Below are positions 16,049 to 44,798 of a stretch of DNA of 64,000 nt, one piece after another. Each line of letters starts with the position of its first letter. The stretch's first letter is position 1. The notes under the pieces are model-generated. The model was not told the DNA's origin, did not search any database, and saw only the letters and a list, made by a program, of their open reading frames with translations. The translations under genes were made by a program, and so were the position numbers. Source of the DNA: Vitreimonas sp. (GTDB lineage: Bacteria > Patescibacteriota > Microgenomatia > UBA1400 > PJMF01); contig DASPLQ010000012.1 of the NCBI GenBank assembly GCA_035627515.1, forward strand, positions 650,331-714,330, given 5' to 3'.

Positions 16049-18493
<2,445 letters not shown>

Positions 18494-18509
<16 letters not shown>

Positions 18510-20710: not shown

Positions 20711-20820
20711 TACTCAATAATAGAGGATGAAGATGGCTCTAAACAATATGTAAACTCGATATGTTCGCCTTTTCTTTGTCTCGTCGTAAGTGTAAGAAAT
20801 CTGTAAGATGTGTACCAGGC

Positions 20821-24834: not shown

Positions 24835-24836
24835 TT

Positions 24837-27800
24837 ATGAAGTTACCCATTTTAAAATATTGGCGTAGTCAGTACCGAACATTTTTTTTTGCGTTGTTGA
24901 CTATCTTAAGCTTAGCGATTCCAGCGTGGTACCGATTACACTCACCTAGTGATGCCCGGGCCGGTTGGTTTAATGATCAATGGCAATATCGCAAACGCAT
25001 TCCGCTAACTAATAGTGGTGGCAGTACCGTCACTGACCACCAGGTTCAATTAACTATCGATACCGCCGCGCTTGTTACCTCCGGCAAACTCCAAAGCAAC
25101 TGTGTTGACCTCCGTCTTAACGCTCAAAACACTGATTTTTTGCCATATTGGATTGAACCAGGAACGTGCAATACGACAACCACTAAAGTCTGGGTTCGTG
25201 TCCCTGAAATTCCTACCACTGGTGCAAATATTTGGCTGTACTACGGTAATCCCTCAGCGCTGGATGAATCGAGTGCGGAGCGGGTGTTTCATGCCATTCT
25301 CAAAAACCAGGCGGCAGCCTGGAATATGGATGACAATGTTTCTGGTAATGGTCAAACAATTACCGATGTTAGCGGCAATAGTCGAACAGGTACTATTGTC
25401 GGTTCAGTGAACTGTACAGGTACTGGTCAATTTGATAAAGCCTGTTCACTAACTAGTGGTGGGTATATTGATACTTTTGATACCGGACTTTCAAATCAAT
25501 TAAGTATTTCAGTATGGATTAAGCCCACTTCTGTAGCAACTGCACAAGCAATTATGGGTGAACGTTCGGGAACTAACAGCTGGGCGCTCTATGTTCGACC
25601 CACTGGGGAACTAGGATTCACTTTAAGTGGTTTATCTGATCACATTACAACCGGAGCAGGAGTGACAGCGGGAGTTTGGCAACACGTATTGGTAGTAGTT
25701 AATGGCACTAGTTTAAAAATGTATCGCAATGGAACCCTAGTCAGCGATGTCACTATGGGAGCAACAGTTGCCGACTCTAACCTAACTATGAAAATTGGTG
25801 CTGCAGGTGGTGCTACTAGTCCATATACAGGTGAGATAGATAACCTGCGTTTGTATTCACGGGCTTTCAATGCTGAAGAAATACAACAATTATTAGGCCC
25901 AACCGCAAATTCTCGATATGGATATATGACAAATAACTTGGTAGGCAATGAATTGGTTACAGGTTACAACACTAATGTTACGACTGGCTCACAACAGACT
26001 GAGGAAACAAGTCCACGGCCGATTGCAGTTTGGAATTTTGATGAGGGTAGTGGACAAACTATTAATGATGTCGTGGTGAAAAAAAATCAAGCCATGTTAG
26101 GTGCTAATAGCTCTTCGGCATCAGATGACCCTACCTGGCAAACTGAGGATATGTGTATCAGTGGTAAGTGTTTACGGTTTGATGGTACCAATGATTATGT
26201 CCAAGTGAACAATAATATTAGTACTCAAATAGGCACTGCAGTCACATTTTCGGCTTGGATTAGAACTAATTCGAGTAACAATCCGATGTCGATTATGGGT
26301 AATTACAATTCCGCGGTAGCAGGAGGACCATGGTTTGAAGTGCTGGCAGGTAAAGCGGCTTTCCATAATGGTAGTTCCGGAACTTTAAGTAGTAATAAAT
26401 CAGTTAATGATGGTAAGTGGCATCATGTGGTGGCTACAGTTGGGCCCTCCGATGCAAAGATCTATGTCGATGGCAGTTTAGATAACTCATCAACTTCTTT
26501 TTCACTTTTGAAAACATCCACAACTGCCTATGCCATTGGTGCGGTCTATGCATCTAGTGCTCCCAGTTCATTCTTTAATGGCTTCATTGATGAGCCCAAA
26601 ATTTATCCCTATGTGCGGACAGCTGCCGAAGTCAGGCAAGATTACATTCGGGGTTTAACGAGTGCAGGTGCTAATGCCGCGTTGGGTGTGCCGGAAACCA
26701 GCCATTTAAATAATGGCTTAGCAGCCTACTGGAAAATGGATGAGAGTAGCTGGAATGGGACCAGCTCGGAAGTGATTGATTCGAGTGGTAATAATAATCA
26801 CGGAACTGCGGGCTGCAATGGCGGGTGTGTGGGTTCACCTCCTAGTACTAGTACCGGTAAATTTGGCAATGCGGGTTATTTCACGGTGACAGGCAGTAAC
26901 TATCAGAGGGTTAGTGTGCCTTCTTCTAGCACTTTGCAGATCACTTCAGCAATAACGCTCTGTACTTGGGTTAATGAAGTAGGTACCAACTTTAATGGAT
27001 ATGTGCTTGATGCTAACACGTATCGTTTACAAATGAACTCTGGCGGTAGTATCGATATGCGGGTGACTACTGGCGGTGTCTCAACCGCCTCGCCAAATAG
27101 TGGTACTCTACCCACTAACACTTGGGTGCATATCTGTGGGACCTATGATGGTAGTAAGGTTAGTTTATATAGAGATGGCAGCTTAGTGGGATCAACAGCC
27201 AAAACAGGTACTATTGATACTATCAGCAGTCCAGTTATTAATAATGCTACTGGTGCAACTCGCAACTTAAAATTAGATGAATTCCGTATTTATAACCGAG
27301 CTCTTTCGCCCGCCGAAGTCCAAGATCTCTACGCGTGGACCGCTGGACCGGTGGGGCACTGGAAGTTCGATGAGGGGGAGGGTACGACTGCGAATGATGC
27401 CAGTGGCAATGGCTTAACGGGAACAATTACTTCTGGGACCCAGTGGAGTGAAGGAAGATTTGGCAGCGCACTCAATTTTGATGGGACTCAGCTAGTTCTT
27501 ATCGGTAATTCTGCTCCAGTTCAATTAGGAACGGGTACAGTAGAAGCCTGGATCAAAACCACTAATGCCGGTAGTTCTTTCCGTGGTATCGTAGTTAAGC
27601 AAAACGCCTATGGCATGTTTTTAAATGATAATGTGTTCGGAAGCTATGATTGGGGAGGGACTGGTTTTAATAGTAGTGGCTTAAGTCTTAATGATGGTCA
27701 ATGGCATCATGTCAGTATGACTTTTGATGGCAGTAATAGTACCACCAACTTATATCTTGATGGTACTTTGGTTGACACAGGCAATAACACTGTCTCAGGT

Positions 27801-29981
27801 CATAACACGAGTTTGAGTATTGGGTCCGGTACTGGTGGAGTTAGTCAGACTTTTATTGGCAAAATTGATGATGTTAAACTCTACAACTACGTTCGGACCA
27901 GAGAACAAGTTTTGTTGGATATTAAAGCCAACCGGCCGGCCGCATTGGGGGCACAGGATTCGGTTCCGCCTCCACTTGCCCACTGGAAGTTTGATGAAGG
28001 TAATGGTACCAGTAACGCCGATAGCAGCGGGAATGGCTATACCCTAACTATGGAAAACTCTGAAGGTGATGAGTGGGCGAGTGGCAAATTAGGCTCAGGC
28101 CTACAGTTTGATCGTAATAATGAGCGAGCAGCTCGGGCGGATACCACAGGCTCACCTTTTGATTTAACTCAAGGCACTCTTTCTGCTTGGGTATATCGGA
28201 CTGGACAAGTAAGTGGTTCGGGCAATCAGGGGCGGATTATTAGTAAAGCTGATTTATATGTGCTATTTCTCAATAGTGATGAAGAAGTTCAGTGTTATGG
28301 CAATGGGAGTACCTTGGATTCAAACTACGTCTTACCTCTTAATCAATGGTCACATGTGCTGTGTACGCAAGATTCAGCGAGTACAACTAAAACCCGTAAA
28401 ATTTATGTTAATGGCGTAGAAGTTGCTTCAAGTACCCCAGCTAGTGCGTGGAGTGTTGATAATAATCCTTTGACAGTTGGTAATTATTTTACTGATGGCT
28501 ACTTTTTCCCTGGTTACATCGATGAAGTTAAAATGTGGAACATACCTTTGAATACCGATCAGATTGCGTATGAAGCTAATATCCGATCTGCTGACGTGCT
28601 TGCTTATCAGGCAACCAGTACCGAACAAACTCAAGATGTTGGTTCCAGTAATCCGCCAATAGGTGAGTGGAATTTTGATGAAATGACAGGTGCTACAGCC
28701 AATGATCTCGGGGCAAATGGCTTTGATGGCACGATTACTAACGCAACTTGGGTGCCTGGCCAAATTGGTGGCGCACTCGATTTTGCTGGTAATGCTTGTG
28801 TGTCTACTTCGACTTCTTCAACTCTCAACCCTACTTCCACTATGACGGTGGAAACGTGGGTGTATCTAAATGCCAATCAAGGTTCGTTTGCTTCATTAAT
28901 TTCACGAGATGGCGAATCGGCAGCGCGGGCGTATTCAATAGAACTAGGTAATGCCGGTACGAATCGTTTGAGAGTGTGGTTTGGCGCCGGTGGCAGTCCC
29001 AAAGTAGTTGATTCTACTTCGGCTTTGGCCCTCAACCAGTGGTACCACATTGTGGGGACCTATGATGGCTCTAGTGTGAAGTTGTACATCAATGGCAGAT
29101 TAGATAACAGTTTAAGCACTTCCGGCACGATCACTACTAACACTGACACTTTAGCATTTGGCTGTAGCAGCCAACTCAATGGCGAGTACTTCAACGGTAA
29201 GCTCGATCACGTCAAAATCTACAACTACGCTCGCAGTCAAGCTCAAGTGGCCTATGATTACAACCGCGGTAAACCAATTGCGCACTGGAAAATGGATGAG
29301 TGTCAGGGGACTACAATTTATGATGCTTCGGGAAATAATAATCATGGCACGTTAACAGTCACCGGCCAATCAGTGGGAACCTGTGACACTAGTTCCACAG
29401 CTTGGGGTAGCGGGGCGACAGGAAAATATAATGCTAGCATTAACTTAGATGGTACTGGAGATGAAATTAGCATAGGAGATCCAAGTTCAGGTATTTTTGA
29501 CTTTGGTACTCGAGACTTTACATTAAGTGCGTGGGTCAAAACAACAAGCGGCGAACAAAGCATTATCTCAAAGCAAATAGCTAACACCTGGAACGGTTAC
29601 AATTTTTACATTATGCCTGATGGTAAATTAATTAGCAGTGTTTCCTGGCTTAATAATGGCGCAACCAGTTCTATCACCAGCACCAATAGTGTGAATGACG
29701 GAACATGGAAACATGTGGTGTTTGTCATGAATGGGGCTGATAGAACAAACTGGAAACTCTATATCAATGGTCAAGCTGACAGTTTTACTGAAGCAGGGTC
29801 AGATTTATCAGGTACTGGTATTGATAATACTGTCCCCCTAAGAATTGGTAATCGTGAATATAACGATGCCACTGACTTTATTGGCCAAATCGACGACGTC
29901 AAAGTCTTCAATTACGCTCTCTCTACCGCCCAAGTTCGCAAAGAGTACAACGCGGGGTCAGCGATTTATTTTGGTAATTAA
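24837..29981 (+). CDS. 1714-aa secreted protein: DUF2341-like N-domain followed by about 7 tandem LamG (concanavalin-A-like) domains
   Basis: N-terminal TM/signal. VWVRVPEIPTTGANIWLYYGNP resembles DUF2341. Seven LamG C-terminal beta-strand signatures: IDNLRLYSRAFNAEEIQQL, IDEPKIYPYVRTAAEV, LDEFRIYNRALSPAEVQDLY, IDDVKLYNYVRTREQV, IDEVKMWNIPLNTDQI, LDHVKIYNYARSQAQV, IDDVKVFNYALSTAQV. Confidence 0.7.
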   Translation: MKLPILKYWRSQYRTFFFALLTILSLAIPAWYRLHSPSDARAGWFNDQWQYRKRIPLTNSGGSTVTDHQVQLTIDTAALVTSGKLQSNCVDLRLNAQNTDFLPYWIEPGTCNTTTTKVWVRVPEIPTTGANIWLYYGNPSALDESSAERVFHAILKNQAAAWNMDDNVSGNGQTITDVSGNSRTGTIVGSVNCTGTGQFDKACSLTSGGYIDTFDTGLSNQLSISVWIKPTSVATAQAIMGERSGTNSWALYVRPTGELGFTLSGLSDHITTGAGVTAGVWQHVLVVVNGTSLKMYRNGTLVSDVTMGATVADSNLTMKIGAAGGATSPYTGEIDNLRLYSRAFNAEEIQQLLGPTANSRYGYMTNNLVGNELVTGYNTNVTTGSQQTEETSPRPIAVWNFDEGSGQTINDVVVKKNQAMLGANSSSASDDPTWQTEDMCISGKCLRFDGTNDYVQVNNNISTQIGTAVTFSAWIRTNSSNNPMSIMGNYNSAVAGGPWFEVLAGKAAFHNGSSGTLSSNKSVNDGKWHHVVATVGPSDAKIYVDGSLDNSSTSFSLLKTSTTAYAIGAVYASSAPSSFFNGFIDEPKIYPYVRTAAEVRQDYIRGLTSAGANAALGVPETSHLNNGLAAYWKMDESSWNGTSSEVIDSSGNNNHGTAGCNGGCVGSPPSTSTGKFGNAGYFTVTGSNYQRVSVPSSSTLQITSAITLCTWVNEVGTNFNGYVLDANTYRLQMNSGGSIDMRVTTGGVSTASPNSGTLPTNTWVHICGTYDGSKVSLYRDGSLVGSTAKTGTIDTISSPVINNATGATRNLKLDEFRIYNRALSPAEVQDLYAWTAGPVGHWKFDEGEGTTANDASGNGLTGTITSGTQWSEGRFGSALNFDGTQLVLIGNSAPVQLGTGTVEAWIKTTNAGSSFRGIVVKQNAYGMFLNDNVFGSYDWGGTGFNSSGLSLNDGQWHHVSMTFDGSNSTTNLYLDGTLVDTGNNTVSGHNTSLSIGSGTGGVSQTFIGKIDDVKLYNYVRTREQVLLDIKANRPAALGAQDSVPPPLAHWKFDEGNGTSNADSSGNGYTLTMENSEGDEWASGKLGSGLQFDRNNERAARADTTGSPFDLTQGTLSAWVYRTGQVSGSGNQGRIISKADLYVLFLNSDEEVQCYGNGSTLDSNYVLPLNQWSHVLCTQDSASTTKTRKIYVNGVEVASSTPASAWSVDNNPLTVGNYFTDGYFFPGYIDEVKMWNIPLNTDQIAYEANIRSADVLAYQATSTEQTQDVGSSNPPIGEWNFDEMTGATANDLGANGFDGTITNATWVPGQIGGALDFAGNACVSTSTSSTLNPTSTMTVETWVYLNANQGSFASLISRDGESAARAYSIELGNAGTNRLRVWFGAGGSPKVVDSTSALALNQWYHIVGTYDGSSVKLYINGRLDNSLSTSGTITTNTDTLAFGCSSQLNGEYFNGKLDHVKIYNYARSQAQVAYDYNRGKPIAHWKMDECQGTTIYDASGNNNHGTLTVTGQSVGTCDTSSTAWGSGATGKYNASINLDGTGDEISIGDPSSGIFDFGTRDFTLSAWVKTTSGEQSIISKQIANTWNGYNFYIMPDGKLISSVSWLNNGATSSITSTNSVNDGTWKHVVFVMNGADRTNWKLYINGQADSFTEAGSDLSGTGIDNTVPLRIGNREYNDATDFIGQIDDVKVFNYALSTAQVRKEYNAGSAIYFGN

Positions 29982-29989
29982 GCTTTCCT

Positions 29990-32071
29990 TTGCAGTACTT
30001 ACCTAATCTGTTACTATGGATACAGATGTCAACCGTGGATTCATTTACCCAGCGCGTCATGAACATGATTCTGCCAGCAATGGCGATCATAGTCCCGATA
30101 GTGTTTGTGCCGCTGAGCACAGATTTTTTTACCACCAGTAAAAAAATAGTGTTATTGGTGGTGGCTTCGGTAGCAATTTTGGCTTGGACATGGCGCGGAG
30201 TGCTACGTAAAAAATTTGATTTTTATATCAGTCCAGCCACGGCGCCACTCATTATTTTGTGCATTTTATATGGTGTTTCGACGGCGTTTAGAGCCCCCAA
30301 CTTTTGGCTAGCATTAACTGGTGAAACGACACTTTTTTTAACATTAAGTGTGATTTTTTTAACGGTAACGGCTCTTTTAAAAGAGCAGGCGGTGTTAGTC
30401 CGTACCTATCACTCGTTATTACTCTCTGCCTCTGTTGTGTCCCTGATTGTGATACTGCAATTTTTTAAAATTGGCCAGTTACTGACAGCAGTTCCTTGGT
30501 TAGAAACGCCGTTATTTAATCCCACTGGTGGTCCGCTCACCTTTTTATCTCTCAGTGTGCCTCTCATTGCAGCCAATGCTGCTTTCTTGTATCGTCACCA
30601 GCCACGGCCAAAGCCATTTTATTTTCTGACGACCTTATTATTGGTGGTTGCCTCGTTATTAACAGTGGCTTTATTAGTGATGGAAAAGTTGCAACTAATG
30701 CCGTTGACTGCAGCCTGGGTGATTGGAATCGGGGCCTTACAAAATCCTGGAGTGGCATTATTGGGAACAGGTCCCGGCACCTATGCCGATGTTTATACGC
30801 AGCTTAAACCGGCTTTTATGAACATGACGCCCACTTGGAATGTGGTTTTTTCTAGTTCAGTTAATTATTTCTTTCAACTACTCACTACGGTTGGGTTACC
30901 CGCAGTAGCTTTATATTTATATGCCTTAGGGAGCACTCTCGCAGCCGCCAGCCGCCAGCTCACGAAAAACCGATGGCTCAAAGTTTACACGGCTTTGCTA
31001 CTTAGTTGCGTGGGAATGCAACTCATTTTGCCTCCCAACTTAATGTTAATGTTGATAGTGTTCATCAGTTTGAGTTTAGTGACAATTGAGTTAAAAATAA
31101 CTCAGCTCTCTGCAACCCTTAATCCTTTGCAGAGTAGTGCGGCCCAGATGTTGGGAGCGCCGCGGCGCTTTTGGGAGCAACGATTTGGGGCACATGAACA
31201 AAAATTAAGCTTGTTGTTTTGGTTTATGGGTTTGGTGATTACTGGCGGAGTGCTTTTTTATAATTACGTCCTGGCCCGCGCCTATGCCAGTGAGATAGTT
31301 TTTTATCGCTCTTTGCAAGCCGCGGATCAAAACAATGGCACCGCCGTTTATAACCTTCAAGTCCAAGCCATTAACTTAAAACCATATGAGCCCCAGTATC
31401 ATTTGGCATATGCTCAAACGAATCTCGCGTTAGCTGAGTCATTGGCAGCAAAAAGTGAGGTTAATGATCAAGACAAAGCCACTATTACCCAATTAATTGA
31501 ACAAGCTATCCGAGAAGCTAAAACTGCGGTGCAGTTACAACCGACCAATAGTTTGGCGTGGCAAAACCTAGCGGCTATTTATCGGCAACTGATTGGTTTA
31601 GCTGATGGAGCAGATGAATGGACATTGACGGCTTATCAACAGGCTATAGCCTTAGATCCTAGTAATCCTCAGCTACGCCTAGATTTGGGTGGAGTTTTTT
31701 ATTCGGTAAAAAATTATGGTGAAGCTGTAGGCTACTTTACCCAAGCCGCTCAACTTAAACCCGACTGGGCTAATGCCTATTACAACTTAGCAATGGCGTA
31801 TCGCGATGGCGGAGAGCCGCAACTAGCAGTCCAAGCCATGCGTGTAGTAGCCGAACTCATTGATCCTACGAGTACCGAGTATCAACAAGTGCAAACAGAG
31901 CTCAAAGCTTTAGAAGCTGATTTGCCGACAGAAATAACCCCACCTCAGCCTTTACCAGTCAGTGATGACACAGAAGAGGAAGAAGTACTCACGAAGCCTT
32001 CACCATTGCCTTCACCTACTTTGAAAGAGGAAATCGAACTTCCGGCTGATGTAGCCCCAAATTCACCCTAA
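29990..32071 (+). CDS. O-antigen-ligase-like (Wzy_C) polytopic membrane protein with C-terminal TPR repeats
   Basis: At least 10 TM helices, with a periplasmic-loop GIGALQNPGVALLGTGPG. C-terminal TPR-like repeats (AYYNLAMAYRDGG, LAWQNLAAIYRQL). Confidence 0.6.
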   Translation: MQYLPNLLLWIQMSTVDSFTQRVMNMILPAMAIIVPIVFVPLSTDFFTTSKKIVLLVVASVAILAWTWRGVLRKKFDFYISPATAPLIILCILYGVSTAFRAPNFWLALTGETTLFLTLSVIFLTVTALLKEQAVLVRTYHSLLLSASVVSLIVILQFFKIGQLLTAVPWLETPLFNPTGGPLTFLSLSVPLIAANAAFLYRHQPRPKPFYFLTTLLLVVASLLTVALLVMEKLQLMPLTAAWVIGIGALQNPGVALLGTGPGTYADVYTQLKPAFMNMTPTWNVVFSSSVNYFFQLLTTVGLPAVALYLYALGSTLAAASRQLTKNRWLKVYTALLLSCVGMQLILPPNLMLMLIVFISLSLVTIELKITQLSATLNPLQSSAAQMLGAPRRFWEQRFGAHEQKLSLLFWFMGLVITGGVLFYNYVLARAYASEIVFYRSLQAADQNNGTAVYNLQVQAINLKPYEPQYHLAYAQTNLALAESLAAKSEVNDQDKATITQLIEQAIREAKTAVQLQPTNSLAWQNLAAIYRQLIGLADGADEWTLTAYQQAIALDPSNPQLRLDLGGVFYSVKNYGEAVGYFTQAAQLKPDWANAYYNLAMAYRDGGEPQLAVQAMRVVAELIDPTSTEYQQVQTELKALEADLPTEITPPQPLPVSDDTEEEEVLTKPSPLPSPTLKEEIELPADVAPNSP

Positions 32072-32131
32072 AAATTCGCCTTTTCTTTGTCTCGCGGTGA
32101 GTGTAAGAACTCTGTAAGATGTGTACCAGGC

Positions 32132-35100
32132 ATGGAAAAAGATCCACGCAGGAGTATTACGTTTCTCGGTTTAAGCCGCAGCAAGCGCTTGTTTGCTGTC
32201 GGTTTAATTGTGATGGCAGGAATAGCATGGTGGTCGATCCGACCAAACAGGCTTCTCGAGCCCAGTGGTGATCAATTGGCAGTCGCACAGGGAAAAAGCG
32301 TAGGCTCTGGTCGAGTTCTAGGTACTGACACCGAAGAGATTACCCCAGCCACGTTTCAAGTCCAAGTGGCGACAGTGTTCTCAGATGTGGTGAGGATCGC
32401 AGAGTTGAGTGTGGCAGAAGGTTCAGTGTTTGCAGGGCTGGCTGAGTTTCAAGATGAAGTCATCATGCGCGCCAATGCTGAAGTAAGAGGTGATTTAACA
32501 GTTGGTGGGCGGTTAATTTTGAATGATGATGCGTTTGGCAATGACATTGATATCGATATCGAACAAGGCACCATCACTGCTGGCACCGTCACCGCCGATA
32601 ACTTAGTCTACTCAGTTAAAGCTGGCTCGGGCATTTCGGTCAGTGGCACACAGGACGTGACTATTTCCGCCACTGATTTAGGTTCTTCGCAAAAGATTTT
32701 TAAAAACGTTAAAGTCAATAGTGACACCATTACAGCAGCCAATAATGAAGACACCCTCACCCTCAAAAATGGTTCTGGTGTTAACTTATCTCGATCCGGC
32801 AATGAAATTACTTTTGCCAGCGATAACATTAGTGGCTGGGTGCGCTCAGGTAGTTATGTGGCCTTGGTAGATGCTACCACTTCCGTAGGTATTGGGACCG
32901 CTACCCCCACCAATAAACTGGAAATCAATTCCGGTACCACTCACACTTCTGGTCTCACCTTTAGTCAAATGACGTCTGCCTCTACGGTCGGGGTTGGGGG
33001 CGGTAAAGTATTGTCAGTCGATTCTGGTGGCCGAGTGATTTTAGTGCAGGACCAAACGGGTGACACTCCCGATGCAGAATCAGTTTTGCCTTCTACAACT
33101 ACTGGTGGCACCTTATATTTCAATGGCCTGAACTGGGTAGGCAGCACCAATCTCTATCACAATGGTGGTCAAGTGGGTATTTCCACTACACCTGCTGCCA
33201 ACTCACGTTTTCATGTTCTAACGAATGCCGTGGATAAGGTTGGGGCAGTGATTCAGCGCGTTGTTTCTCAGACGGCAAATTTGTTAGAGTTTCGTGATGA
33301 AAATGGTAATGCGCTGAGTTATTTTGATGAAGAGGGCGTTTATCATGGTGAAGCAGAGTTAACGGGCTCGATTACTGGCTCTATTAACCCTGGTTTAGTC
33401 CAAGGACAAGTAGCTTATCAAGGAGCTTCTGCTTTGGCTGGTAGCAACTCATTATTTTGGGATGCTGGTAACTCGCGCTTAGGGATTGGAACTAATGGGC
33501 CTTCTTCTCAGTTACACCTCAACTCAAGTACAGACGGGACAACTACTGGCATTACTTTAGCTAGCCAATACAACACGCTCAAGCTGTATGGCCGAGGTAA
33601 CTCACCAGCTAGCTCAGTTATCGAATCGAGCGGGAGCTTTCCAGGAATCACTTTTAGAACTGGTTCTAGTCCTGCTGATCGTATGTACTTAGATCTGGTT
33701 GGTAAATTAGCACTAGGGCACACTTCACCAGTGGGCTTATTTGATGTCAGTGGCAAGGTCACCGGTAAAGCTCTAAATATTCTTAACGAAACCGGTAACC
33801 AAGATATTTTCACCGCCTCGGCTTCAGGAACTTCACGGTTCACGATTAAGAATGATGGGAGTGTGGGTGTAGGCACAGTGAGTCCAAGTCAGGCCCTACA
33901 TGTAGTTGGTAATTTAGCCGTCGAAGGTGTGGAAACTGGGACAGGAGGCATAGCTGAAAATAGTGGACGCATTAGAGTTGGGAATCGAACTAATGGAGGT
34001 GTGACCACGAAATACTTAGAAATGTGGAGTAACTGGGATACCCCTGTTATTCAAAGTGTTGGATATGGGCAGCCCTTATCTATCACTTCATCAACTGGTC
34101 GAATAAGCATGAATCCTATTAGCTCAGGGGGTACGGCCACTAATTCGAACAATATGATTTTTTTGAGAGTGGGTCATGGGGCAGGGAGTACGAGTAACGT
34201 CAGTCCGGCAATAGCTGGTTCAGGAGGGCTTGGTGTCTGGGCCAGTGATATTAACTCTAGTTTACTGATTATTGATACTTCAACAGCTGGGCATAATCGC
34301 CCTCTGATTGAAGCCAGCGAGGCAACGGTATCTCGTCTCTATTTGCATCAGGATGGTCGGTTAGGTCTCAATAACAGTTCACCAACTGGCACCTTACACG
34401 TTGTGACTGGTTCAACAGCTGGTAAAGCATTGACAATTTTTAATGAAACCGGTGATCAGAATATTTTGACTGCTTCAGCCTCCGGTACCACGCGGATGGT
34501 TTTAACTAATAATGGGCTGTTAGGAGTGGGAACAACTTCTCCGACTTCCAGAGTCCACGTTCAAGGGGATTTAGCCGTGACCGATGGATCTGGTAATCCA
34601 GGTATACTGAGAATTGGTACCAATGAAAAAGGCCTCCTGTATTTGACTGGTAGTACCTTAGCTCTTCAAAGTAATAATTATCCTATTACTATTCAATCAA
34701 TCGGAGGTGCTTTTGGTGGATATATTCGTTTCAATCTAGGTGGAACTGAAGCCATGAGATTAACAAGCGCCGGGAATTTTGGCATTGGAACTACCGCTGC
34801 AACTTCGCCACTACATGTTAACGCTGGGTATGGCTCAAATGCCTTGGCTGCTTTCAATCAACTCAATGGTGGTGACATTCTGACAGCTAGCGCCAGTGGT
34901 ACTACCCGGATGGTGTTAAGTAATGCTGGGCGGTTGGGATTAAACACTCTTACTCCAGGCGCCTTAGGTGATTTTGCCGCTCCTACGAGTACGGTTGGTT
35001 TGATTGTTAGAGCTACTGCTTCCGGCGGACAGAATGCTCAAGAGTGGTACAACAATGGTAATTCTTTAACAGCGGCTGTTAACAATCAAGGTAGCTTTTA

Positions 35101-36394
35101 TACTGGCAGTTGTGCAGCAGTAGGAACTTCAAGTCTATGTGGCTCGCAATTGGCAGTGGTATCAGGTAGTCCAACTCGACCTGGTATTAGTGTGAGCGGT
35201 GCTTCAGGCCAATCCGCAGCACTTTTAAGCTTAACCGGAGCTGGCACCATTGCCGCAGGTACTAGTACCTACATGAACCTGGATCTTTCTGGTTTAGTGC
35301 TTACAACCAACAATCCTACTATTAATGGTTTTAATATTAGTAATATTCCTACTGGCAGCGGCGTAGAAACCGCGATTAAAGTGGGTACCGGTTGGGATGT
35401 AGCGGCAACTTTTGCGTCAGGCAACATTGGTTTGGGCACCAGTACGTTTGGAACGTCGGCTGATAAAGTGCTGGCCATTGCCGGCTCTACTGCGCCCAGC
35501 TCAGCGATCACTGATGGCATTCAACTCTTTGCTGTTGATCAAAGTGGCAGCCACGAGTTGAGAGTTATGGACGAAGCTGGAAATATCACTACGCTTTCAC
35601 CTCACAATTTCAGTTTAATTCCTGAAGGCCGTAGTGAGGATCTAGCTTGGAGTTTTTACTCAGAGCGTAATGGCTTAGCGATTAATGCTGATATGACCAA
35701 AGCCTTGCGGTTGGTAGAAAAACTGAGTGGTGAGCAATTAATTTACTTAAAAGATCTAGACACTAATCAGGACGTCACCCCGACATTTACTCAGGAGTTG
35801 CCTAGCGCTCAAACGCTTTTAGCTGAAGGAGAAATTCCGGCCGTAGCTCGTTGGAGTTATCAATTATGGAGCTTCATTGGTGAAGTGGTATTTGAAAAAC
35901 CAGCACGCTTTTTAGCCTCAGTAGTATTTGAGAATGACGTCAAAGTGGAAGGTTTCATTGAGCAGAGTCCAGCCGCAGCAGGTTGGGCAGAAATAAAGGC
36001 CGGTGACGGTGAAGTGAAAGTCACGTATGCCCAAGCTTACCCCGCACAGCCTGTACTGACTGTGACTCCCACGAAGAGTGGCGTAAAGTATCAACTGGTA
36101 GATGAAACCACCACTGGCTTTACAATTAAACTCGAAGCACCCGCCGCTCAGCTCGAACGCTTTGCATGGCAGGCACAATTTATTACCAGTCCCCAAACCA
36201 CCACTAGTAATGGGGGAAGTAGCCCATCACCTTCACCCACAGCTAGTTCCAGTCCCAGCCCCAGCCCGAGCTCAGCCCCAGTCATTGCCTCGCCATCACC
36301 GACCCCACTTGTCTCACCTGAGCCGAGTCCTAGCTCCCAGCCGGATGCAACTCCAGAGCCGACAGCCAGTGATTCAGCGGGGCTGAGTGAATAA
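32132..36394 (+). CDS. giant membrane-anchored surface repeat protein, tail-fibre-like (paralog 2)
   Basis: 5' leader and first roughly 470 codons nearly identical to the gene at 20821; the rest is divergent but has the same VG(I/V)GT...KAL(N/T)I(L/F)NETGxQxI(F/L)TASASGT repeat family. PS-rich C-terminus. Start placed at ATG 32132. Confidence 0.7.
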   Translation: MEKDPRRSITFLGLSRSKRLFAVGLIVMAGIAWWSIRPNRLLEPSGDQLAVAQGKSVGSGRVLGTDTEEITPATFQVQVATVFSDVVRIAELSVAEGSVFAGLAEFQDEVIMRANAEVRGDLTVGGRLILNDDAFGNDIDIDIEQGTITAGTVTADNLVYSVKAGSGISVSGTQDVTISATDLGSSQKIFKNVKVNSDTITAANNEDTLTLKNGSGVNLSRSGNEITFASDNISGWVRSGSYVALVDATTSVGIGTATPTNKLEINSGTTHTSGLTFSQMTSASTVGVGGGKVLSVDSGGRVILVQDQTGDTPDAESVLPSTTTGGTLYFNGLNWVGSTNLYHNGGQVGISTTPAANSRFHVLTNAVDKVGAVIQRVVSQTANLLEFRDENGNALSYFDEEGVYHGEAELTGSITGSINPGLVQGQVAYQGASALAGSNSLFWDAGNSRLGIGTNGPSSQLHLNSSTDGTTTGITLASQYNTLKLYGRGNSPASSVIESSGSFPGITFRTGSSPADRMYLDLVGKLALGHTSPVGLFDVSGKVTGKALNILNETGNQDIFTASASGTSRFTIKNDGSVGVGTVSPSQALHVVGNLAVEGVETGTGGIAENSGRIRVGNRTNGGVTTKYLEMWSNWDTPVIQSVGYGQPLSITSSTGRISMNPISSGGTATNSNNMIFLRVGHGAGSTSNVSPAIAGSGGLGVWASDINSSLLIIDTSTAGHNRPLIEASEATVSRLYLHQDGRLGLNNSSPTGTLHVVTGSTAGKALTIFNETGDQNILTASASGTTRMVLTNNGLLGVGTTSPTSRVHVQGDLAVTDGSGNPGILRIGTNEKGLLYLTGSTLALQSNNYPITIQSIGGAFGGYIRFNLGGTEAMRLTSAGNFGIGTTAATSPLHVNAGYGSNALAAFNQLNGGDILTASASGTTRMVLSNAGRLGLNTLTPGALGDFAAPTSTVGLIVRATASGGQNAQEWYNNGNSLTAAVNNQGSFYTGSCAAVGTSSLCGSQLAVVSGSPTRPGISVSGASGQSAALLSLTGAGTIAAGTSTYMNLDLSGLVLTTNNPTINGFNISNIPTGSGVETAIKVGTGWDVAATFASGNIGLGTSTFGTSADKVLAIAGSTAPSSAITDGIQLFAVDQSGSHELRVMDEAGNITTLSPHNFSLIPEGRSEDLAWSFYSERNGLAINADMTKALRLVEKLSGEQLIYLKDLDTNQDVTPTFTQELPSAQTLLAEGEIPAVARWSYQLWSFIGEVVFEKPARFLASVVFENDVKVEGFIEQSPAAAGWAEIKAGDGEVKVTYAQAYPAQPVLTVTPTKSGVKYQLVDETTTGFTIKLEAPAAQLERFAWQAQFITSPQTTTSNGGSSPSPSPTASSSPSPSPSSAPVIASPSPTPLVSPEPSPSSQPDATPEPTASDSAGLSE

Positions 36395-39048: not shown

Positions 39049-39417
39049 ATGAAACCAACCTCTAACTTAGGTCCTTTGGAACAAGCCGTGATGGAAGTTG
39101 TATGGCAGTATCATCCGCACCAACCAGTGTCAGTTCGCACAGTGCTGGAAGTATTACGTGAGCGTAAAGAAATTGCCTATACCACCGTCATGACAATCAT
39201 GACGCGTTTAGTGGCTAAAGGGTATTTAACCAAAACTAAACAAGGTAAAAGTTTTTATTATCAGCCCCAACAAAACCAAGAACAGACCTTAAAATCACTG
39301 GTTAAAAAAACGTTGAGTAATTTCATTGAGCGGTTTGGTGAAGAAGCCGTAGCAGCTTTCCTAGATGAAGCCGAAGCGCACCAGCCTAAAAAAAATCGGG
39401 TCAAACGCCGAACATAA
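39049..39417 (+). CDS. BlaI/MecI/CopY-family transcriptional repressor
   Basis: LGPLEQAVMEVVWQYHPHQPVSVRTVLEVL...YTTVMTIMTRLVAKGYLTKTKQGKSFYYQP is a typical penicillinase-repressor winged helix. Confidence 0.8.
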   Translation: MKPTSNLGPLEQAVMEVVWQYHPHQPVSVRTVLEVLRERKEIAYTTVMTIMTRLVAKGYLTKTKQGKSFYYQPQQNQEQTLKSLVKKTLSNFIERFGEEAVAAFLDEAEAHQPKKNRVKRRT

Positions 39418-39424
39418 AGTCTAT

Positions 39425-40441
39425 ATGCATATCCGTACTGAATGGCAGTTAGTAGTATTTCTGAGTATTTGTTTGAGTGTCATGGGTGTAGTTTTTTTCC
39501 AGCTCTTAGAAAAGTTTTCATTTTTAAGTGTTAGTCAAGTTGCTGAGGTATGTTCCAGTTTAGCTGTTAGCTTTAGCTACTCTTATTTTTATCACTGTGG
39601 CCAAACGTTGGCCGTAGTGGCCAGTGGTTTAATTACGGGTTTGTATCTCAAGGCTCTGATCTCATTTGTAAAAACCCAGCGTCATGGAGCGCAGTTGTTG
39701 TCGAAAAAAGTGTCTCGGATGCCGATCCGACTACTCCGCCTGAGTAATCAATTAGGTTTGGAGAACGATGAGCTGATCTTAATTAATTCGTCACAGCCAG
39801 TAGCCATTACCGTAGGAATTTTTAACCCTCGGATTGTGATTAGTACTCACTTAATGACTGAACTCACTCACAAAGAACTGGAAGCAGTTTTAATCCATGA
39901 GGTTCACCACTTACGACGTTGTCATCCTTTATTATTTTTAGCCGCTGAAGTAGTTGCTTCCAGCTTACCTTTTGTGCCCATTATTAAAGAAATCGTGGGA
40001 CATTTTCGATATCTCATGGAATATCAAGCTGATAAGCGCGCAACCAAGTTGCAGGGTAGTATAGTATATATTTCACGAGCTCTTCACAAAATGACTGCTG
40101 GCACCACTCAGTATGCATTATTTCCTGCCTTTAGTTATACACGTCAGCAATCACGGTTGAGAGCGGTTAGTACTCAGCCGCATGGTCTAAACCTGACGTT
40201 GAGAAGTTTGCTCATCTCCGCGATCACGGTGATGAGTTTAAGCGGTTTACTCGTGATTCCAATCTCTGTTCGAGCTCAACAGGCTGGTGCTTCCACTGGG
40301 CTGGTTAACTGCAGCTCACACAATGCGGATCAGTGTACAACGTACTGTCACCCCGGCGTGATGAGTTTTTACCAACTCGAAACCAGCCCCAATCGCTCCA
40401 CCGACCCACTGTTGTCACAACCCTTAACTCCTGCGTATTGA
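39425..40441 (+). CDS. BlaR1-like M56 metallopeptidase membrane sensor
   Basis: Four TM helices and an HExxH motif in EAVLIHEVHHLRRCHP (compare BlaR1 HELxH). Cognate BlaI lies immediately upstream. Start placed at ATG 39425 to avoid overlap. Confidence 0.7.
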   Translation: MHIRTEWQLVVFLSICLSVMGVVFFQLLEKFSFLSVSQVAEVCSSLAVSFSYSYFYHCGQTLAVVASGLITGLYLKALISFVKTQRHGAQLLSKKVSRMPIRLLRLSNQLGLENDELILINSSQPVAITVGIFNPRIVISTHLMTELTHKELEAVLIHEVHHLRRCHPLLFLAAEVVASSLPFVPIIKEIVGHFRYLMEYQADKRATKLQGSIVYISRALHKMTAGTTQYALFPAFSYTRQQSRLRAVSTQPHGLNLTLRSLLISAITVMSLSGLLVIPISVRAQQAGASTGLVNCSSHNADQCTTYCHPGVMSFYQLETSPNRSTDPLLSQPLTPAY

Positions 40442-41275: not shown

Positions 41276-41323
41276 ATGATTATAATAAACGGGTAGAGAG
41301 CACGACTTTCTACCCGTTTTTTT

Positions 41324-41866
41324 ATGAAACCTGTCAAACTTTTATCGTTACTTTTAGTAACTTTAGCTATCACTGTCAGTGTCGCGGGGTGGTGGTATTA
41401 CTACCGGACTCCGGATGATATCCATCATGAGTCTGTCCATTATCACGCTGGTTTTCAAGTCTATGTAGATGACGTCAAACAGGACTACAGTGATTGGAAG
41501 TACATGAATTTTACGCCCTGTGGTGATCATCAAGAAAAACAAACACCTGAGGAAGAACAGCAGGAAAAAGCTCACTTGCATGATGGCAATGGCGATGTGG
41601 TGCATGTCCACCGGCCGGGCGCCACCTGGGGGGATTTATTTAAAAATATTGGTGTCACACTCGATGCTAATAAAGAAGTTGTAGCATATAGTGGTGATCA
41701 AAAAATCACTGACATTTTAACTAAACCTATTGAGGCTAATCAAAGTATTGTGATTGTGGTGGGTGCACAGGAAAAAGCAAATGAGTACTTACCAAACCGA
41801 GTTACTCTAGAACGCATCGCCGAAGTCGAAAAGAAAAGCGAACTGTGTGGGGCTACCAAGCATTAG
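41324..41866 (+). CDS. membrane-anchored hypothetical protein, His/Cys-rich (possible metal-binding)
   Basis: N-terminal TM. HHESVHYHAGF, CGDH, HLHDGNGDVVHVH and a C-terminal Cys. No family assigned. Confidence 0.4.
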   Translation: MKPVKLLSLLLVTLAITVSVAGWWYYYRTPDDIHHESVHYHAGFQVYVDDVKQDYSDWKYMNFTPCGDHQEKQTPEEEQQEKAHLHDGNGDVVHVHRPGATWGDLFKNIGVTLDANKEVVAYSGDQKITDILTKPIEANQSIVIVVGAQEKANEYLPNRVTLERIAEVEKKSELCGATKH

Positions 41867-41880
41867 GACTAGTTCGCAAT

Positions 41881-42723
41881 CTATACCGAACTAGGAAGAG
41901 GAGCAGCAGGTGGCTTATTCAGGCCCAGCTTGGTTTTTAAGTAGGCTTGATTGCGATACAGATTAAAGGCCAGGTTGCACATCAGCAATGCCATCGCATA
42001 CGGTTCGGGCCAATAGAAGTAAAGAGCAATGGCCACCAATACACCCAGACTCCCCGCGAAAACATATTGTTGTTTAGGTAAGGCTGGTGAAGTCTTGGGC
42101 TCCACTGCCATCACCATTAAGAAGTAAGCCAGAGTGCCATCTGCCAGCAAGAACAAAGGACTCATCCGGAAAAGAAGAGTGTACAAAACCGCAAAAACGC
42201 TGGCACTAATCAAAACAATTGGTAGCTTCCGATATTTGTGTGCCACGTAGCCTGCCAGAGGGAGTGTTAATAACATTGCCACGCTCATTCCTTCCGGAAT
42301 TAAAGGCAGCCGCGGGGCAAAATTCGTACCCCACCAACTTGGATAAATAGACACGAAGCTGAAAACAGCGGCAGTCAAAGCAGCTGGGTTAAAGATGGGG
42401 CCTGTAGGAACTCTGACTAAGCGCTGTACCAACTCAGTAAAGATTCCTAGTAGCGGGAATACCCACCACGCGATCAAAGGATCAAATAACAATAACAGAA
42501 TAAAATTAGAAATGCTTTTGTGTTCCCAGCGGGTGGGCCGCCCGAGGTTCAAAAAAGTTAACAAAAAGTAGGTGGCCCAGTTACCAGCTGCCAGCAAAGC
42601 AGCGTTGCGGAATTGGGTTAGCCAAAAGCTTAATTGAGTGCCATCCCATCCCCAACTCGCCCAGACATACATCACGACTAGATAAATGAGCAAAATGCGT
42701 ATTGGCGAGAACCAGTTTTTCAT
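41881..42723 (-). CDS. polytopic membrane protein, RnfD/NqrB-like (NQR2/RnfD/RnfE family) candidate
   Basis: Seven to eight TM helices. C-terminal FLMVMAVEPKTSPALPKQQYVFAGSLGVLVAIAL parallels the RnfD/NqrB FMATDPVTSP...G..G.L motif. Divergent from the ApbE / FMN-binding genes. No SGAT flavinylation site seen. Confidence 0.4.
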   Translation of the reverse strand: MKNWFSPIRILLIYLVVMYVWASWGWDGTQLSFWLTQFRNAALLAAGNWATYFLLTFLNLGRPTRWEHKSISNFILLLLFDPLIAWWVFPLLGIFTELVQRLVRVPTGPIFNPAALTAAVFSFVSIYPSWWGTNFAPRLPLIPEGMSVAMLLTLPLAGYVAHKYRKLPIVLISASVFAVLYTLLFRMSPLFLLADGTLAYFLMVMAVEPKTSPALPKQQYVFAGSLGVLVAIALYFYWPEPYAMALLMCNLAFNLYRNQAYLKTKLGLNKPPAAPLPSSV

Positions 42724-42764
42724 GCTACTATCTTACCGGTATTACTTTATAAAATAAAGCACAT

Positions 42765-43247
42765 ATGAAAAAAACACTTTTGTCTTTATCAATCATTGTA
42801 GCAACTGCTGTCATTTTTAGCGCCTGCCAATCTTCACAGCCAACTACTACTGCTCCCAGTACAGCACCGGCTGCTGCAGTAGCCTCAACTGCTCCCGCTG
42901 CTGAGCCTTCTGCGATGCCTGCCATCGAAACCTCACCAGCTATGCCAGCTGCTCCAGGGGCACGTGAGTTAAACACCGAAACTACATATCAATCACCAGC
43001 AGGTCCTGAAAAAGTAGCTTTCGCCCTCACTGTTGACGCCCAAGGTGTGATTACAGATGCTACCACCACCGTGCTTGCTAAGGCCCCTATCTCAGTCGTG
43101 CGCCAAGAAGCCTTCGCTAAAGAAATGCCAACAGTGTTGAAAGGCAAAAAATTAGCAGAACTCACTAAAGTTGATCGCATTGGTGGTTCTTCTTTGACCA
43201 CAGGTGCTTTTAATGCTGCTTTAACTCAACTCAAAGCTGGTTTATAG
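42765..43247 (+). CDS. lipoprotein with C-terminal FMN-binding (FMN_bind) domain; probable ApbE substrate
   Basis: Lipobox IFSAC. Ala/Pro-rich linker. C-terminus LTKVDRIGGSSLTTGAFNAALTQL aligns to the FMN_bind consensus VDAVSGATxTSxAxxxAV, with Ser at the flavinylated position. Confidence 0.6.
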   Translation: MKKTLLSLSIIVATAVIFSACQSSQPTTTAPSTAPAAAVASTAPAAEPSAMPAIETSPAMPAAPGARELNTETTYQSPAGPEKVAFALTVDAQGVITDATTTVLAKAPISVVRQEAFAKEMPTVLKGKKLAELTKVDRIGGSSLTTGAFNAALTQLKAGL

Positions 43248-43256
43248 TCAGCTTCG

Positions 43257-44144
43257 ATGACAGAATTTCGTTTTAATGCCATGGGCACGGCTTGGTCAAT
43301 TACCCTCGATGGAGTAACTGATCGAGACGTGCCTGTTTCGTTGTGGGACAAAGTGGTGACTAGTACTGATAATTTCGAGCAACGTTTTTCGCGGTTTATT
43401 GAAGGCAGTGAAGTGACAGCATTTCGTACTGCTCCGGCTGGCACCTATCCTCTTTCTAAAGAACTTACTATCTTGTTGGCACAGTCTCACGTTGTGCGAG
43501 AGTTAACAGGCGGCGCTTTTGACCCCGCTATTGGTACCCTCTTAGAAAAAGCTGGCTATGACCAACAGTATTCTTTTCATCCTCAGGATCAAGAGCTTGA
43601 TAACTGGCGTTTGCCGGGTTGGAATGTGGATGTTGCTCAACAGCAAGTGACAATCTCAGACGCAGTAGTTTTTGACACAGGTGGGATTGGCAAAGGGTAT
43701 TGGATCGATCAGTTGAGTCAACTGATATTTGAGGCTGGGTACCCGTATCACTTAGTCGATGGTGGCGGTGATATGGTAGCTACCACCAAAGAGAACTATG
43801 CTGGCTGGCAAGTAGCGATTGAGTGGCCAGGTGACCAAGAGCGAGCTATCGGAGTGGTAGAACTTCATAATCAGGGCTTTGCTGCCTCTGATATTTTTCG
43901 ACGGCGCTGGGGAGAATGGCATCATCTCATCAATGTTACCGAACGCCAGCCAGTTGGTAATATTAAAGGCTGTGTCGCGGTAGCCGCTTCGGCCTGGTCA
44001 GCCGACCAAATGACATCGGCGTTAGCCCTAGTTCAGCCAGAAGCATATGAGCACATTGGTCACGCACTCGGTGCTGAGTACTTAGTTTTGCTGCAATCTG
44101 ATCAAGCAATTATCAGTCCTCAGTGGCCTGGTGAGGTATTTTAG
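43257..44144 (+). CDS. apbE: FAD:protein FMN transferase ApbE
   Basis: FNAMGTAWSITL and TGGAFDPAIGTLLEKAGY are conserved ApbE motifs. Length (295 aa) is typical. Confidence 0.85.
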   Translation: MTEFRFNAMGTAWSITLDGVTDRDVPVSLWDKVVTSTDNFEQRFSRFIEGSEVTAFRTAPAGTYPLSKELTILLAQSHVVRELTGGAFDPAIGTLLEKAGYDQQYSFHPQDQELDNWRLPGWNVDVAQQQVTISDAVVFDTGGIGKGYWIDQLSQLIFEAGYPYHLVDGGGDMVATTKENYAGWQVAIEWPGDQERAIGVVELHNQGFAASDIFRRRWGEWHHLINVTERQPVGNIKGCVAVAASAWSADQMTSALALVQPEAYEHIGHALGAEYLVLLQSDQAIISPQWPGEVF

Positions 44145-44772: not shown

Positions 44773-44798
44773 AAAGAGCCGATCATGATCGGCTCTTT
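44773..44798. terminator. bidirectional terminator-like palindromic hairpin between convergent genes
   Basis: Perfect 12-bp palindrome AAAGAGCCGATC-AT-GATCGGCTCTTT, with A/T-rich tracts on both sides. Confidence 0.5.

Follow-up and report, generated by a model that had tools for sequence, protein, structure and literature searches.

A three-gene module with a predicted flavinylated lipoprotein, an ApbE-type transferase and a reduced RnfD/NqrB-like membrane protein in a Patescibacteria-type bacterium

Does a solitary RnfD/NqrB-like gene beside a flavin transferase mark the fragment of an Rnf or Nqr operon, or a compact redox unit in its own right? The question is raised by a 64-kb stretch of DNA (hereafter the window; contig DASPLQ010000012.1 of assembly GCA_035627515.1, positions 650,331 to 714,330) from a Patescibacteria-type bacterium, in which three adjacent open reading frames (ORFs) encode a polytopic membrane protein, a lipoprotein and an ApbE-type transferase of flavin mononucleotide (FMN) from flavin adenine dinucleotide (FAD). 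The original prediction, made from the letters of the sequence, placed all three ORFs correctly and took them, together with a set of upstream genes, for an extracytosolic flavinylation unit. Our results support a compact module of ApbE, FMN-binding lipoprotein and RnfD/NqrB-like protein that is not a piece of an rnf or nqr operon. With somewhat better than even confidence, we read it as a minimal, unfused two-subunit "Nqr/Rnf-like" module for flavin-based electron transfer across the membrane, equipped with a dedicated flavin transferase.

The trio and its genomic setting

Loci for comparison were gathered by exact-protein look-up and a species-genome scan, and analysed by ORF calling, hidden Markov models and clustering. 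The trio recurs in 28 independent loci, at identities down to about 25-35%, and the divergent layout is kept in 26 of them, typically across a gap of 40-70 nt. These loci come from Moranbacteria, Microgenomates, Peribacteria, Dojkabacteria, Roizmanbacteria, metagenome-assembled genomes labelled Saccharibacteria, and an actinobacterial-type contig. Clustering of the neighbours yielded no conserved fourth gene across the 28 loci, the most frequent other cluster being present in nine and lying ~6 kb away. The trio is a conserved unit, beyond what chance would produce, and the remaining neighbourhood is not.

Is the trio perhaps one piece, or what is left, of a canonical Rnf or Nqr complex whose remaining subunits lie close by or elsewhere in the genome? 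The name that the NCBI pipeline gives to an identical membrane protein ("RnfABCDGE type electron transport complex subunit D") might be read that way. When practically all plausible genes of the window were swept with Pfam, no RnfA/B/C/E or NqrA/D/E/F came up, bearing out the absence that the original prediction had remarked upon, nor did any FNR domain, any domain binding nicotinamide adenine dinucleotide (NAD) or any Fe-S protein. Likewise, no Rnf/Nqr family appears among the Pfam labels of the genes called within +/-10 kb in L001, L003, L004 and L007. The membrane protein itself is 70-135 residues shorter than RsxD/NqrB, is without their covalent-FMN threonine and its loop, and scores 21.5 bits against the NCBIfam model TIGR01946 (rnfD), whose cutoff is 207. 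Because no other Rnf/Nqr subunit is present and the window reaches at least 20 kb on each side of the trio, we do not regard the cluster as an Rnf fragment; that explanation retains almost no weight and is effectively refuted for this window. A phmmer search of the window's ORFs with E. coli RsxA/B/C/D/E/G and the FNR domain of L007 was uninformative, since even RsxD misses the RnfD-like protein, and was superseded by the Pfam sweeps.

Within the trio, the ApbE ATG lies 9 nt past the lipoprotein TAG and both ORFs share one frame. A lipoprotein-ApbE fusion produced by stop-codon readthrough was rejected, the spacer being 8 nt in L001 and variable elsewhere, and a recoded genome is disfavoured because long ORFs are present under translation table 11. 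A scan of the 41-nt divergent region for the sigma-70 consensus returned no match above chance. Long antisense ORFs arise from the Ala/Pro-rich lipoprotein gene (Table 1). A candidate lipoprotein-RnfD fusion in public data, P0017 (453 aa, L004 8001-9362), was likewise discarded: its additional 165 residues come from reading the lipoprotein gene in antisense, and the entry is a spurious merger of an antisense ORF with the RnfD-like gene. A 279-aa neighbour in L006, considered as a short RnfD-like protein, is an unrelated lipoprotein.

Membrane protein, lipoprotein and transferase

Both the membrane protein and the lipoprotein fall below their Pfam cutoffs as single sequences, and their identities therefore needed deeper tests. 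A profile of the membrane-protein family, compared with the sequences of the PDB, matches NqrB (7xk3_B, E 6.5e-7) and RnfD (9eri_D, E 7.7e-7), and its matches to the RnfD chains 9eri_D, 7zc6_D and 8ahx_D run as two collinear blocks. With the AlphaFold2 model (predicted local distance difference test, pLDDT, 92.9; predicted template-modelling score, pTM, 0.87), Foldseek returned 15 matches at E<=1e-3, every one of them an RnfD or NqrB (probability 1.00, template-modelling score 0.58-0.69); because of this, the membership of a non-redox transporter family that the original prediction had raised as its refutation finds no support. The first fold matches beyond RnfD/NqrB are Rh/Amt channels, at E about 0.4-0.5. 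The homologues, 260-300 aa long and from Patescibacteria, have R104, FNPAA 112-115, WW 130-131 and P209/T211/P213 as invariant residues, and the most conserved block of the family alignment is EPKTSP (E208 P209 K210 T211 P213), the very motif to which the original prediction had drawn attention.

In the profile alignment, the flavinylated Thr187 of E. coli RsxD (GISQATPLD) falls on Pro137 of the membrane protein (GTNFAPRLP), the loop of ~38 residues ahead of that threonine is deleted, and residues 215-245 of NqrB are without a counterpart; alignments to RsxD and NqrB thus place no covalent-FMN threonine, in an S-G-A-T-type loop, in the membrane protein. Neither Pfam nor the AlphaFold2 model reveals a cytosolic FAD/NAD-binding domain (PF00175), and the C-terminus ends ~15 residues beyond the last helix. 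Judged by its family profile and predicted fold, the membrane protein is a true but reduced RnfD/NqrB homologue.

The lipoprotein carries a lipobox (FSAC), and a lipobox or hydrophobic N-terminal anchor is found on its counterparts in 28/28 loci, which indicates an extracytosolic location. Its family counts more than 110 members; when 35 of them were scanned individually, 19 matched FMN_bind (PF04205) at E<=0.1 (best E 4.5e-5), and no other Pfam family recurred above noise. Y75, Q114, F117, G127, S142, S143, T145 and F149 are invariant in these 35 members, with G141 and L144 nearly so. The segment VDRIGGSSLTTGAF highlighted in the original prediction is present, with GSSLT invariant or nearly so in the family, and the consensus over the 28 loci is [S/G/N/A]-G-[S/A]-S-[L/V]-T, its Ser being invariant. 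The published flavinylation motif is D-x-x-[S/T]-G-A-[S/T], with FMN on the last residue (PMC12052999); Ser143 falls at that position, just as the original prediction had it, and the orthologues of L003, L017 and L019 carry a canonical D-R-V-S-G-A-S. The window's motif is also collinear with D-Q-F-T-G-A-T of E. coli RsxG, with a weak statistic (E 0.06), and the AlphaFold2 model of residues 61-160 has a pLDDT of at least 92 in each 10-residue block. An NCBIfam match to PplA is very weak and covers mostly the signal peptide and linker. From motif and family matches, and with weaker evidence from structure, it is likely but not proven that the lipoprotein is an NqrC/RnfG-type FMN_bind flavinylation substrate.

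The identity of the third protein is straightforward: the apbE call is confirmed by PF02424 at 133 bits (E 1.8e-38, cutoff 25.6). Among solved structures, V. cholerae ApbE is its nearest relative (4xgw_A, E 2.5e-18, query residues 6-289), and at the start of the alignment residue 6 meets residue 20 of the crystallised chain, which we take to be a mature, signal-less construct. The enzyme looks active, since it retains the residues that are invariant among 27 ApbEs of such clusters (G10, S45, F47, G142, G145-K146-G147, G171-D172, S211, R216, H223 and D250); the near-invariant T11, R46 and H222 are also kept.

Its start is less expected. The window's ApbE begins MTEFRFNAMGT, directly preceded in frame by the lipoprotein TAG, with neither signal peptide nor lipobox, and its most hydrophobic N-terminal stretch of 15 residues scores 0.66 against 2.45 for the lipoprotein. 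By the same measure, the ApbEs of the 28 loci reach at most 1.23 and the lipoproteins 1.5-3.3. No signal peptide is predicted on ApbE in any of the 28; the catalytic domain begins directly, and the GT motif, which the scan located in 19 loci, has its start at residue 8-20 there. For want of a signal peptide on ApbE, "extracytosolic flavinylation", as the original prediction labelled the module, is problematic as stated.

Electron transfer, flavin salvage or metal reduction

How might such a trio work? In the electron-transfer module that we favour, ApbE would draw on FAD to attach FMN to Ser143 by a phosphoester bond, as motif conservation and strict gene linkage suggest. The lipid-anchored FMN domain, on its flexible Ala/Pro-rich linker, could then dock at the outer face of the membrane subunit, a step suggested by homology and by a published multimer model; the docking site would be the place where RnfD/NqrB usually hold their covalent FMN, and which is here occupied by Pro137, with the loop deleted. 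Homology with NqrB/RnfD, and the AlphaFold-multimer model published for the fused form, suggest that electrons could cross the membrane between two flavins, one held non-covalently in the conserved core of the membrane subunit (FNPAA, EPKTSP), the other being the lipoprotein FMN, which might finally reduce an extracellular or envelope acceptor.

Several results weigh against this electron-transfer module. As single sequences, the membrane protein scores 20.9 bits against PF03116 (cutoff 27.7), over its C-terminal third only, and the lipoprotein 14.4 bits against FMN_bind (cutoff 22). Of the Pfam checks that came with the original prediction, those against PF03116 and FMN_bind fall short for the window's own sequences; at the family level, the membrane-protein profile and fold are those of RnfD/NqrB, and 19 of the 35 lipoproteins match FMN_bind. 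The flavinylation motif of the window keeps D, G and the terminal S of the consensus, but has G instead of S/T at position 4 and S instead of A at position 6, and in another system two different changes at conserved motif positions, Gly->Ala and Ala->Val, are reported to have cut flavinylation to ~50% (PMC12052999). Foldseek gave no match at E<=1e-3 for the lipoprotein fold, and ranked IscU (E 5e-3) above RnfG (8rb8_G, E 0.09, probability 0.93) for its C-terminal domain, while the family profile retrieved no NqrC/RnfG from the PDB sequences, just signal-peptide and linker noise. Neither the cluster nor the 64-kb window encodes a component for cytoplasmic electron input, and none is conserved over the 28 loci, which leaves the electron path incomplete. 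Finally, ApbE is predicted to be cytoplasmic in 28/28 loci and its substrate exported. An IscU-like function for the lipoprotein was ruled out separately, because no member of the family has a cysteine beyond the lipobox.

With no FAD/NAD(P)H-binding domain fused to the membrane subunit, the cytoplasmic donor must be either a small molecule or a protein encoded apart from the cluster. A cytoplasmic ApbE with an exported substrate contradicts the standard scheme of extracytosolic flavinylation, and term searches of PMC8238504 and PMC11334425 found no discussion of such a pairing. Three solutions are conceivable: the motif, which lies near the C-terminus, might be modified ahead of Sec export; ApbE might reach its substrate through the membrane subunit; or ApbE itself might leave the cytoplasm by an unrecognised export route.

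Or is the lipoprotein there to capture extracellular flavin? Flavin salvage or trafficking would have the RnfD-like protein move the captured flavin inward, to a cytoplasmic ApbE acting as an Ftp-type FAD pyrophosphatase or flavin-handling enzyme. Many Patescibacteria are without riboflavin biosynthesis, and such a device would suit a flavin-auxotrophic bacterium with a reduced genome; in Treponema, the ApbE homologue Ftp acts as an FAD pyrophosphatase. The uniform cytoplasmic prediction for ApbE is easier to square with flavin processing inside the cell than with extracytosolic flavinylation, no gene for an electron donor is present, and the RnfD-like fold is distantly channel-like, although the Rh/Amt channels stand next in line only at insignificant E values. 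However, an invariant Ser within G-[S/A]-S-[L/V]-T, with some orthologues fully canonical, is what one would expect of a covalent substrate, and not of a reversible binder. Moreover, these lipoprotein and ApbE families are also met in company with an RnfD-like protein that carries a fused FNR-type oxidoreductase domain, and in other lineages the membrane module has cupredoxins for partners, whose role is in redox chemistry rather than in binding. We therefore hold salvage to be distinctly unlikely.

A further explanation keeps the flavinylated module and assigns it a task: a metal reductase or copper-homeostasis device, reducing Cu(II) or Fe(III) at the surface under the control of a CopY-like repressor and M56 sensor, with DsbA and a His-rich protein as functional partners. 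This is compatible with the electron-transfer module, and it turns on the upstream genes, which are present much as the original prediction had described them (DsbA-like, His-rich, M56 and BlaI/CopY-like). The best NCBIfam match of the repressor is CopY/TcrY, at 61 bits and below cutoff. The M56/M48-type membrane peptidase, whose gene overlaps that of the repressor by 53 nt, is without a penicillin-binding sensor domain and has a Cys/His-rich end, NCSSHNADQCTTYCHPG; the pair may be a metal-responsive regulator. Next to the trio lies a membrane-anchored His-rich protein of 180 aa (HHESVHYHAG...HLHDGNGDVVHVHRPG), which has no Pfam or NCBIfam match. In Chazhemtobacterium, the trio stands beside VIT1 and a cluster of cupredoxin, HMA-ATPase and DsbD genes; VIT1 has also been noted in six NQR/RNF-like clusters (PMC8238504), and stand-alone homologues of the membrane protein abut cupredoxins, near YHS-type P-type ATPases.

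On the other hand, these neighbours are not conserved with the trio, which removes the DsbA, His-rich and BlaI-BlaR1 genes from the unit in which the original prediction had included them: a DsbA-like gene occurs within 10 kb in 3/28 loci, a His-rich protein in one other locus (the homologue in L067, ~8 kb from the RnfD-like gene), and BlaI/M56 in none. The P-type ATPases near L001, L004 and L008 are of the Cation_ATPase_N/C type and not of the copper type, the mature lipoprotein has no metal-binding motif, and a strong terminator-like hairpin (14-bp stem and T-run), directly after the DsbA-like gene, parts it from the genes downstream. Metal reduction is in our view unlikely, if a little less so than salvage. 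A second hairpin lies between a convergent 189-aa fn3-like gene and a CARDB-domain gene, and the two hairpins suggest that the lipoprotein, ApbE and 189-aa genes could form one transcription unit, apart from BlaI/M56/DsbA. Taken together, the variable neighbours give a hint of redox upkeep in the envelope or of metal reduction, with none of them conserved: they are a CopY-like repressor and DsbA in the window, VIT1 and the copper cluster in Chazhemtobacterium, and MsrB elsewhere.

The wider window offers some context. The NCBI label of the 1.41-Mb source contig, "Vitreimonas sp.", looks wrong, as the nearest relatives of all three trio proteins are Patescibacteria; the window has 44% G+C and also encodes a sortase, mevalonate-pathway genes and giant surface proteins. 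Four very large predicted surface proteins (1357, 1714, 693 and 1435 aa) are encoded one after the other; between them they contain seven Laminin_G_3 repeats, a Peptidase_S74 intramolecular-chaperone domain and TPR repeats, and they might plausibly serve an episymbiont as adhesins. An F-type ATP synthase is represented by its alpha, gamma and beta subunits, encoded ~22 kb upstream of the trio, and the whole window yielded no component of a respiratory chain. Patescibacteria are thought to lack respiratory chains, and little is understood of how they keep their redox balance at the surface. Candidate membrane redox devices are few in this group, and a conserved three-gene flavin module would be one of them.

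Stand-alone relatives and known systems

The original prediction held a stand-alone RnfD-like partner to be unusual. An exhaustive profile search, in contrast, gave 2,793 representative clusters at E<=1e-3 and 1,101 at E<=1e-10, and the large majority of the top 150 matches are 240-300 aa long; by these counts and lengths short stand-alone RnfD-like proteins are common, and what is unusual, compared with the published class described below, is the missing NAD-binding fusion. In 56 stand-alone loci, from Omnitrophota, DPANN archaea and some members of the candidate phyla radiation (CPR), neither ApbE nor an FMN lipoprotein was found, and in 30 of them a gene of small exported metalloprotein type lies within 1.5 kb of the RnfD-like gene. 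The neighbour is of cupredoxin type, by Cupredoxin_1 or COX2 Pfam matches, in 19 loci; in most of these the RnfD-like gene sits at about the 10 kb position, and YHS-type P-type ATPases are frequent nearby. An RnfD-cupredoxin "fusion" in L059 was left out of the evidence, as its ORF spans a run of N.

Eleven of the loci instead carry a secreted protein of ~115 aa, the "AHPP" family, always on the strand of the RnfD-like gene; in Omnitrophota it lies immediately downstream of that gene. H21 (the first residue past the predicted signal cleavage), H43, H51 and C100 are invariant; the best Pfam match is a weak one to desulfoferrodoxin (16.9 bits) and the PDB sequences gave none. AHPP may be an uncharacterised metalloprotein. 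Ten longer RnfD-like members were also inspected: one is an NAD-binding fusion (P0248), and in five the RnfD-like core is followed by one more transmembrane helix and then by a domain that is predicted to be extracellular and for which Pfam offers no match. All of this supports, without proving, the notion that the RnfD-like module serves extracytoplasmic redox partners in general.

Table 1. Positions of the trio, its surroundings in the window, and partners of stand-alone RnfD-like genes
Feature	Position or identifier	Strand	Description
F-type ATP synthase alpha, gamma, beta subunits	window 16309-19942		
Four large surface proteins	window 20761-36394		consecutive
BlaI/CopY-type repressor	window 39049-39417		
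M56/M48-type membrane peptidase	window 39365-40441		
Terminator-like hairpin	window 41287-41319		
His-rich protein	window 41324-41866		
RnfD/NqrB-like polytopic membrane subunit	window 41881-42723	-	280 aa, ~10 membrane segments
Divergent intergenic region	window 42724-42764	.	41 nt, read from sequence; between the membrane-subunit gene and the lipoprotein-ApbE pair
Antisense ORF	window 42728-42976	-	from the lipoprotein gene
Lipoprotein	window 42765-43247	+	160 aa: signal peptide with lipobox, Ala/Pro/Thr-rich linker, C-terminal NqrC/RnfG-type FMN-binding domain of ~95 aa (predicted)
Lipobox Cys21	window 42825-42827	+	
Antisense ORF	window 42989-43201	-	from the lipoprotein gene
Predicted flavinylation motif D137-R-I-G-G-S-S143	window 43173-43193	+	Ser143 is the predicted FMN-phosphoester site
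ApbE-type FAD:protein FMN transferase	window 43257-44144	+	295 aa, no signal peptide or lipobox
Second hairpin	window 44773-44798		
Cupredoxin-type loci	L021, L023, L025, L027, L030-L032, L037, L039, L041, L042, L044, L045, L052, L071, L075, L080, L087		within 1.5 kb of the RnfD-like gene, often same strand, overlapping or abutting
AHPP genes	L036 10597-10947; L049 10714-11055; L055 10572-10928; L057 4027-4368; L064 10583-10930; L066 10582-10929; L084 10585-10926; L085 10564-10914		
AHPP fused to RnfD-like C-terminus	L058 9812-10909		via an extra transmembrane helix
Third architecture	P0190, P0199, P0239, P0245, P0287		447-557 aa; RnfD-like core, one transmembrane helix, C-terminal domain of ~100-250 residues

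Because stand-alone relatives adjoin or are fused with exported proteins of cupredoxin and His3Cys type, we suggest that the RnfD/NqrB fold is used more widely beyond Rnf and Nqr than has been documented so far. Could the short, donor-less RnfD-like protein be a general redox (flavin) conduit of ultra-small, host-dependent Patescibacteria, DPANN archaea and Omnitrophota, one that serves swappable exported acceptors (a covalently flavinylated lipoprotein, cupredoxins or the His3Cys AHPP protein), with an ApbE that acts from the cytoplasmic side in the flavin version? Taken jointly, these propositions are speculative and, on balance, doubtful. If they held, modification ahead of Sec export or via the membrane subunit would do away with the need for FAD export, and a cytoplasmic-side ApbE would be a new route for extracytosolic flavinylation; this could explain why CPR flavinylation is "strikingly underrepresented" in surveys that require a signal peptide.

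How, then, does the trio compare with systems already described? With the six-subunit Rnf and Na+-NQR complexes, and their RnfD-RnfG and NqrB-NqrC pairs in particular, it shares the membrane-subunit fold, the FNPA and (T/E)(D/P)xT motifs and, as far as its sequences predict, an outward-facing FMN_bind partner that receives its flavin from ApbE. Unlike these complexes, it has no RnfA/B/C/E or NqrA/D/E/F, its membrane subunit is without a covalent FMN of its own, and its predicted modified residue is Ser and not Thr; nothing in the trio points to ion pumping or a semicircular electron path. Listeria-type extracellular electron transfer (PplA/FmnB/Ndh2/EetAB) offers another parallel, in that a monoderm-type surface lipoprotein bears ApbE-attached FMN thought to pass electrons outward, for which the trio's lipoprotein would be a counterpart. 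However, the trio comes with no Ndh2, quinone-biosynthesis or EetA/B genes, its membrane component is RnfD-like, and FmnB is an exported lipoprotein whereas the trio's ApbE has no signal peptide. That last property is shared with the cytoplasmic ApbE of Klebsiella pneumoniae, which flavinylates a soluble cytoplasmic fumarate reductase (PMC12052999); the sole linked candidate substrate in the trio is, on the contrary, exported, by lipobox or anchor.

The closest likeness is to a type reported only recently, as the original prediction had surmised: the 127 "NQR/RNF-like" flavinylation clusters, mainly of Actinobacteria and CPR (Meheust et al. 2021, PMC8238504), and the two-subunit Nqr/Rnf-like complex of Ktedonobacter racemifer modelled with AlphaFold-multimer (Huang et al. 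2024, PMC11334425). The searchable literature on RnfD-like or NqrB-like proteins yielded nothing beyond these two papers, and no paper joining ApbE and Patescibacteria. The survey defines NQR/RNF-like operationally by a PF03116 + PF00175 fusion, and discarded proteins without a predicted signal peptide (PMC8238504). The trio would fall outside that definition and probably also outside the survey's signal-peptide and Pfam filters; with signal-peptide-less proteins discarded and two of the three proteins below their Pfam cutoffs, clusters of this type were probably missed. CPR flavinylation may thus be under-counted, and the missed clusters may contribute to its reported under-representation.

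Two departures from the published class stand out: the NAD-binding domain is not fused, and the ApbEs are without a signal peptide throughout. The published complex has a C-terminal cytosolic FAD/NAD-binding domain (PF00175), where the trio has none and encodes no donor. The two agree in several other respects. The transmembrane domain of the fused form is without the flavinylated Thr, and its extracytosolic flavin was modelled beside a non-covalent flavin site (PMC11334425); both systems pair such an NqrB/RnfD-like membrane domain with an anchored, NqrC/RnfG-like extracytosolic subunit bearing a flavinylation motif, both have ApbE in the cluster, and both share one taxonomic range, Actinobacteria and CPR. 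A bridge between them is found in the actinobacterial-type locus L007, where the trio's lipoprotein family and a signal-less ApbE accompany a 519-aa RnfD-like protein that does carry FAD_binding_6/NAD_binding_1. The window's cluster is clearly of the same kind as the published Nqr/Rnf-like class, minus the input domain.

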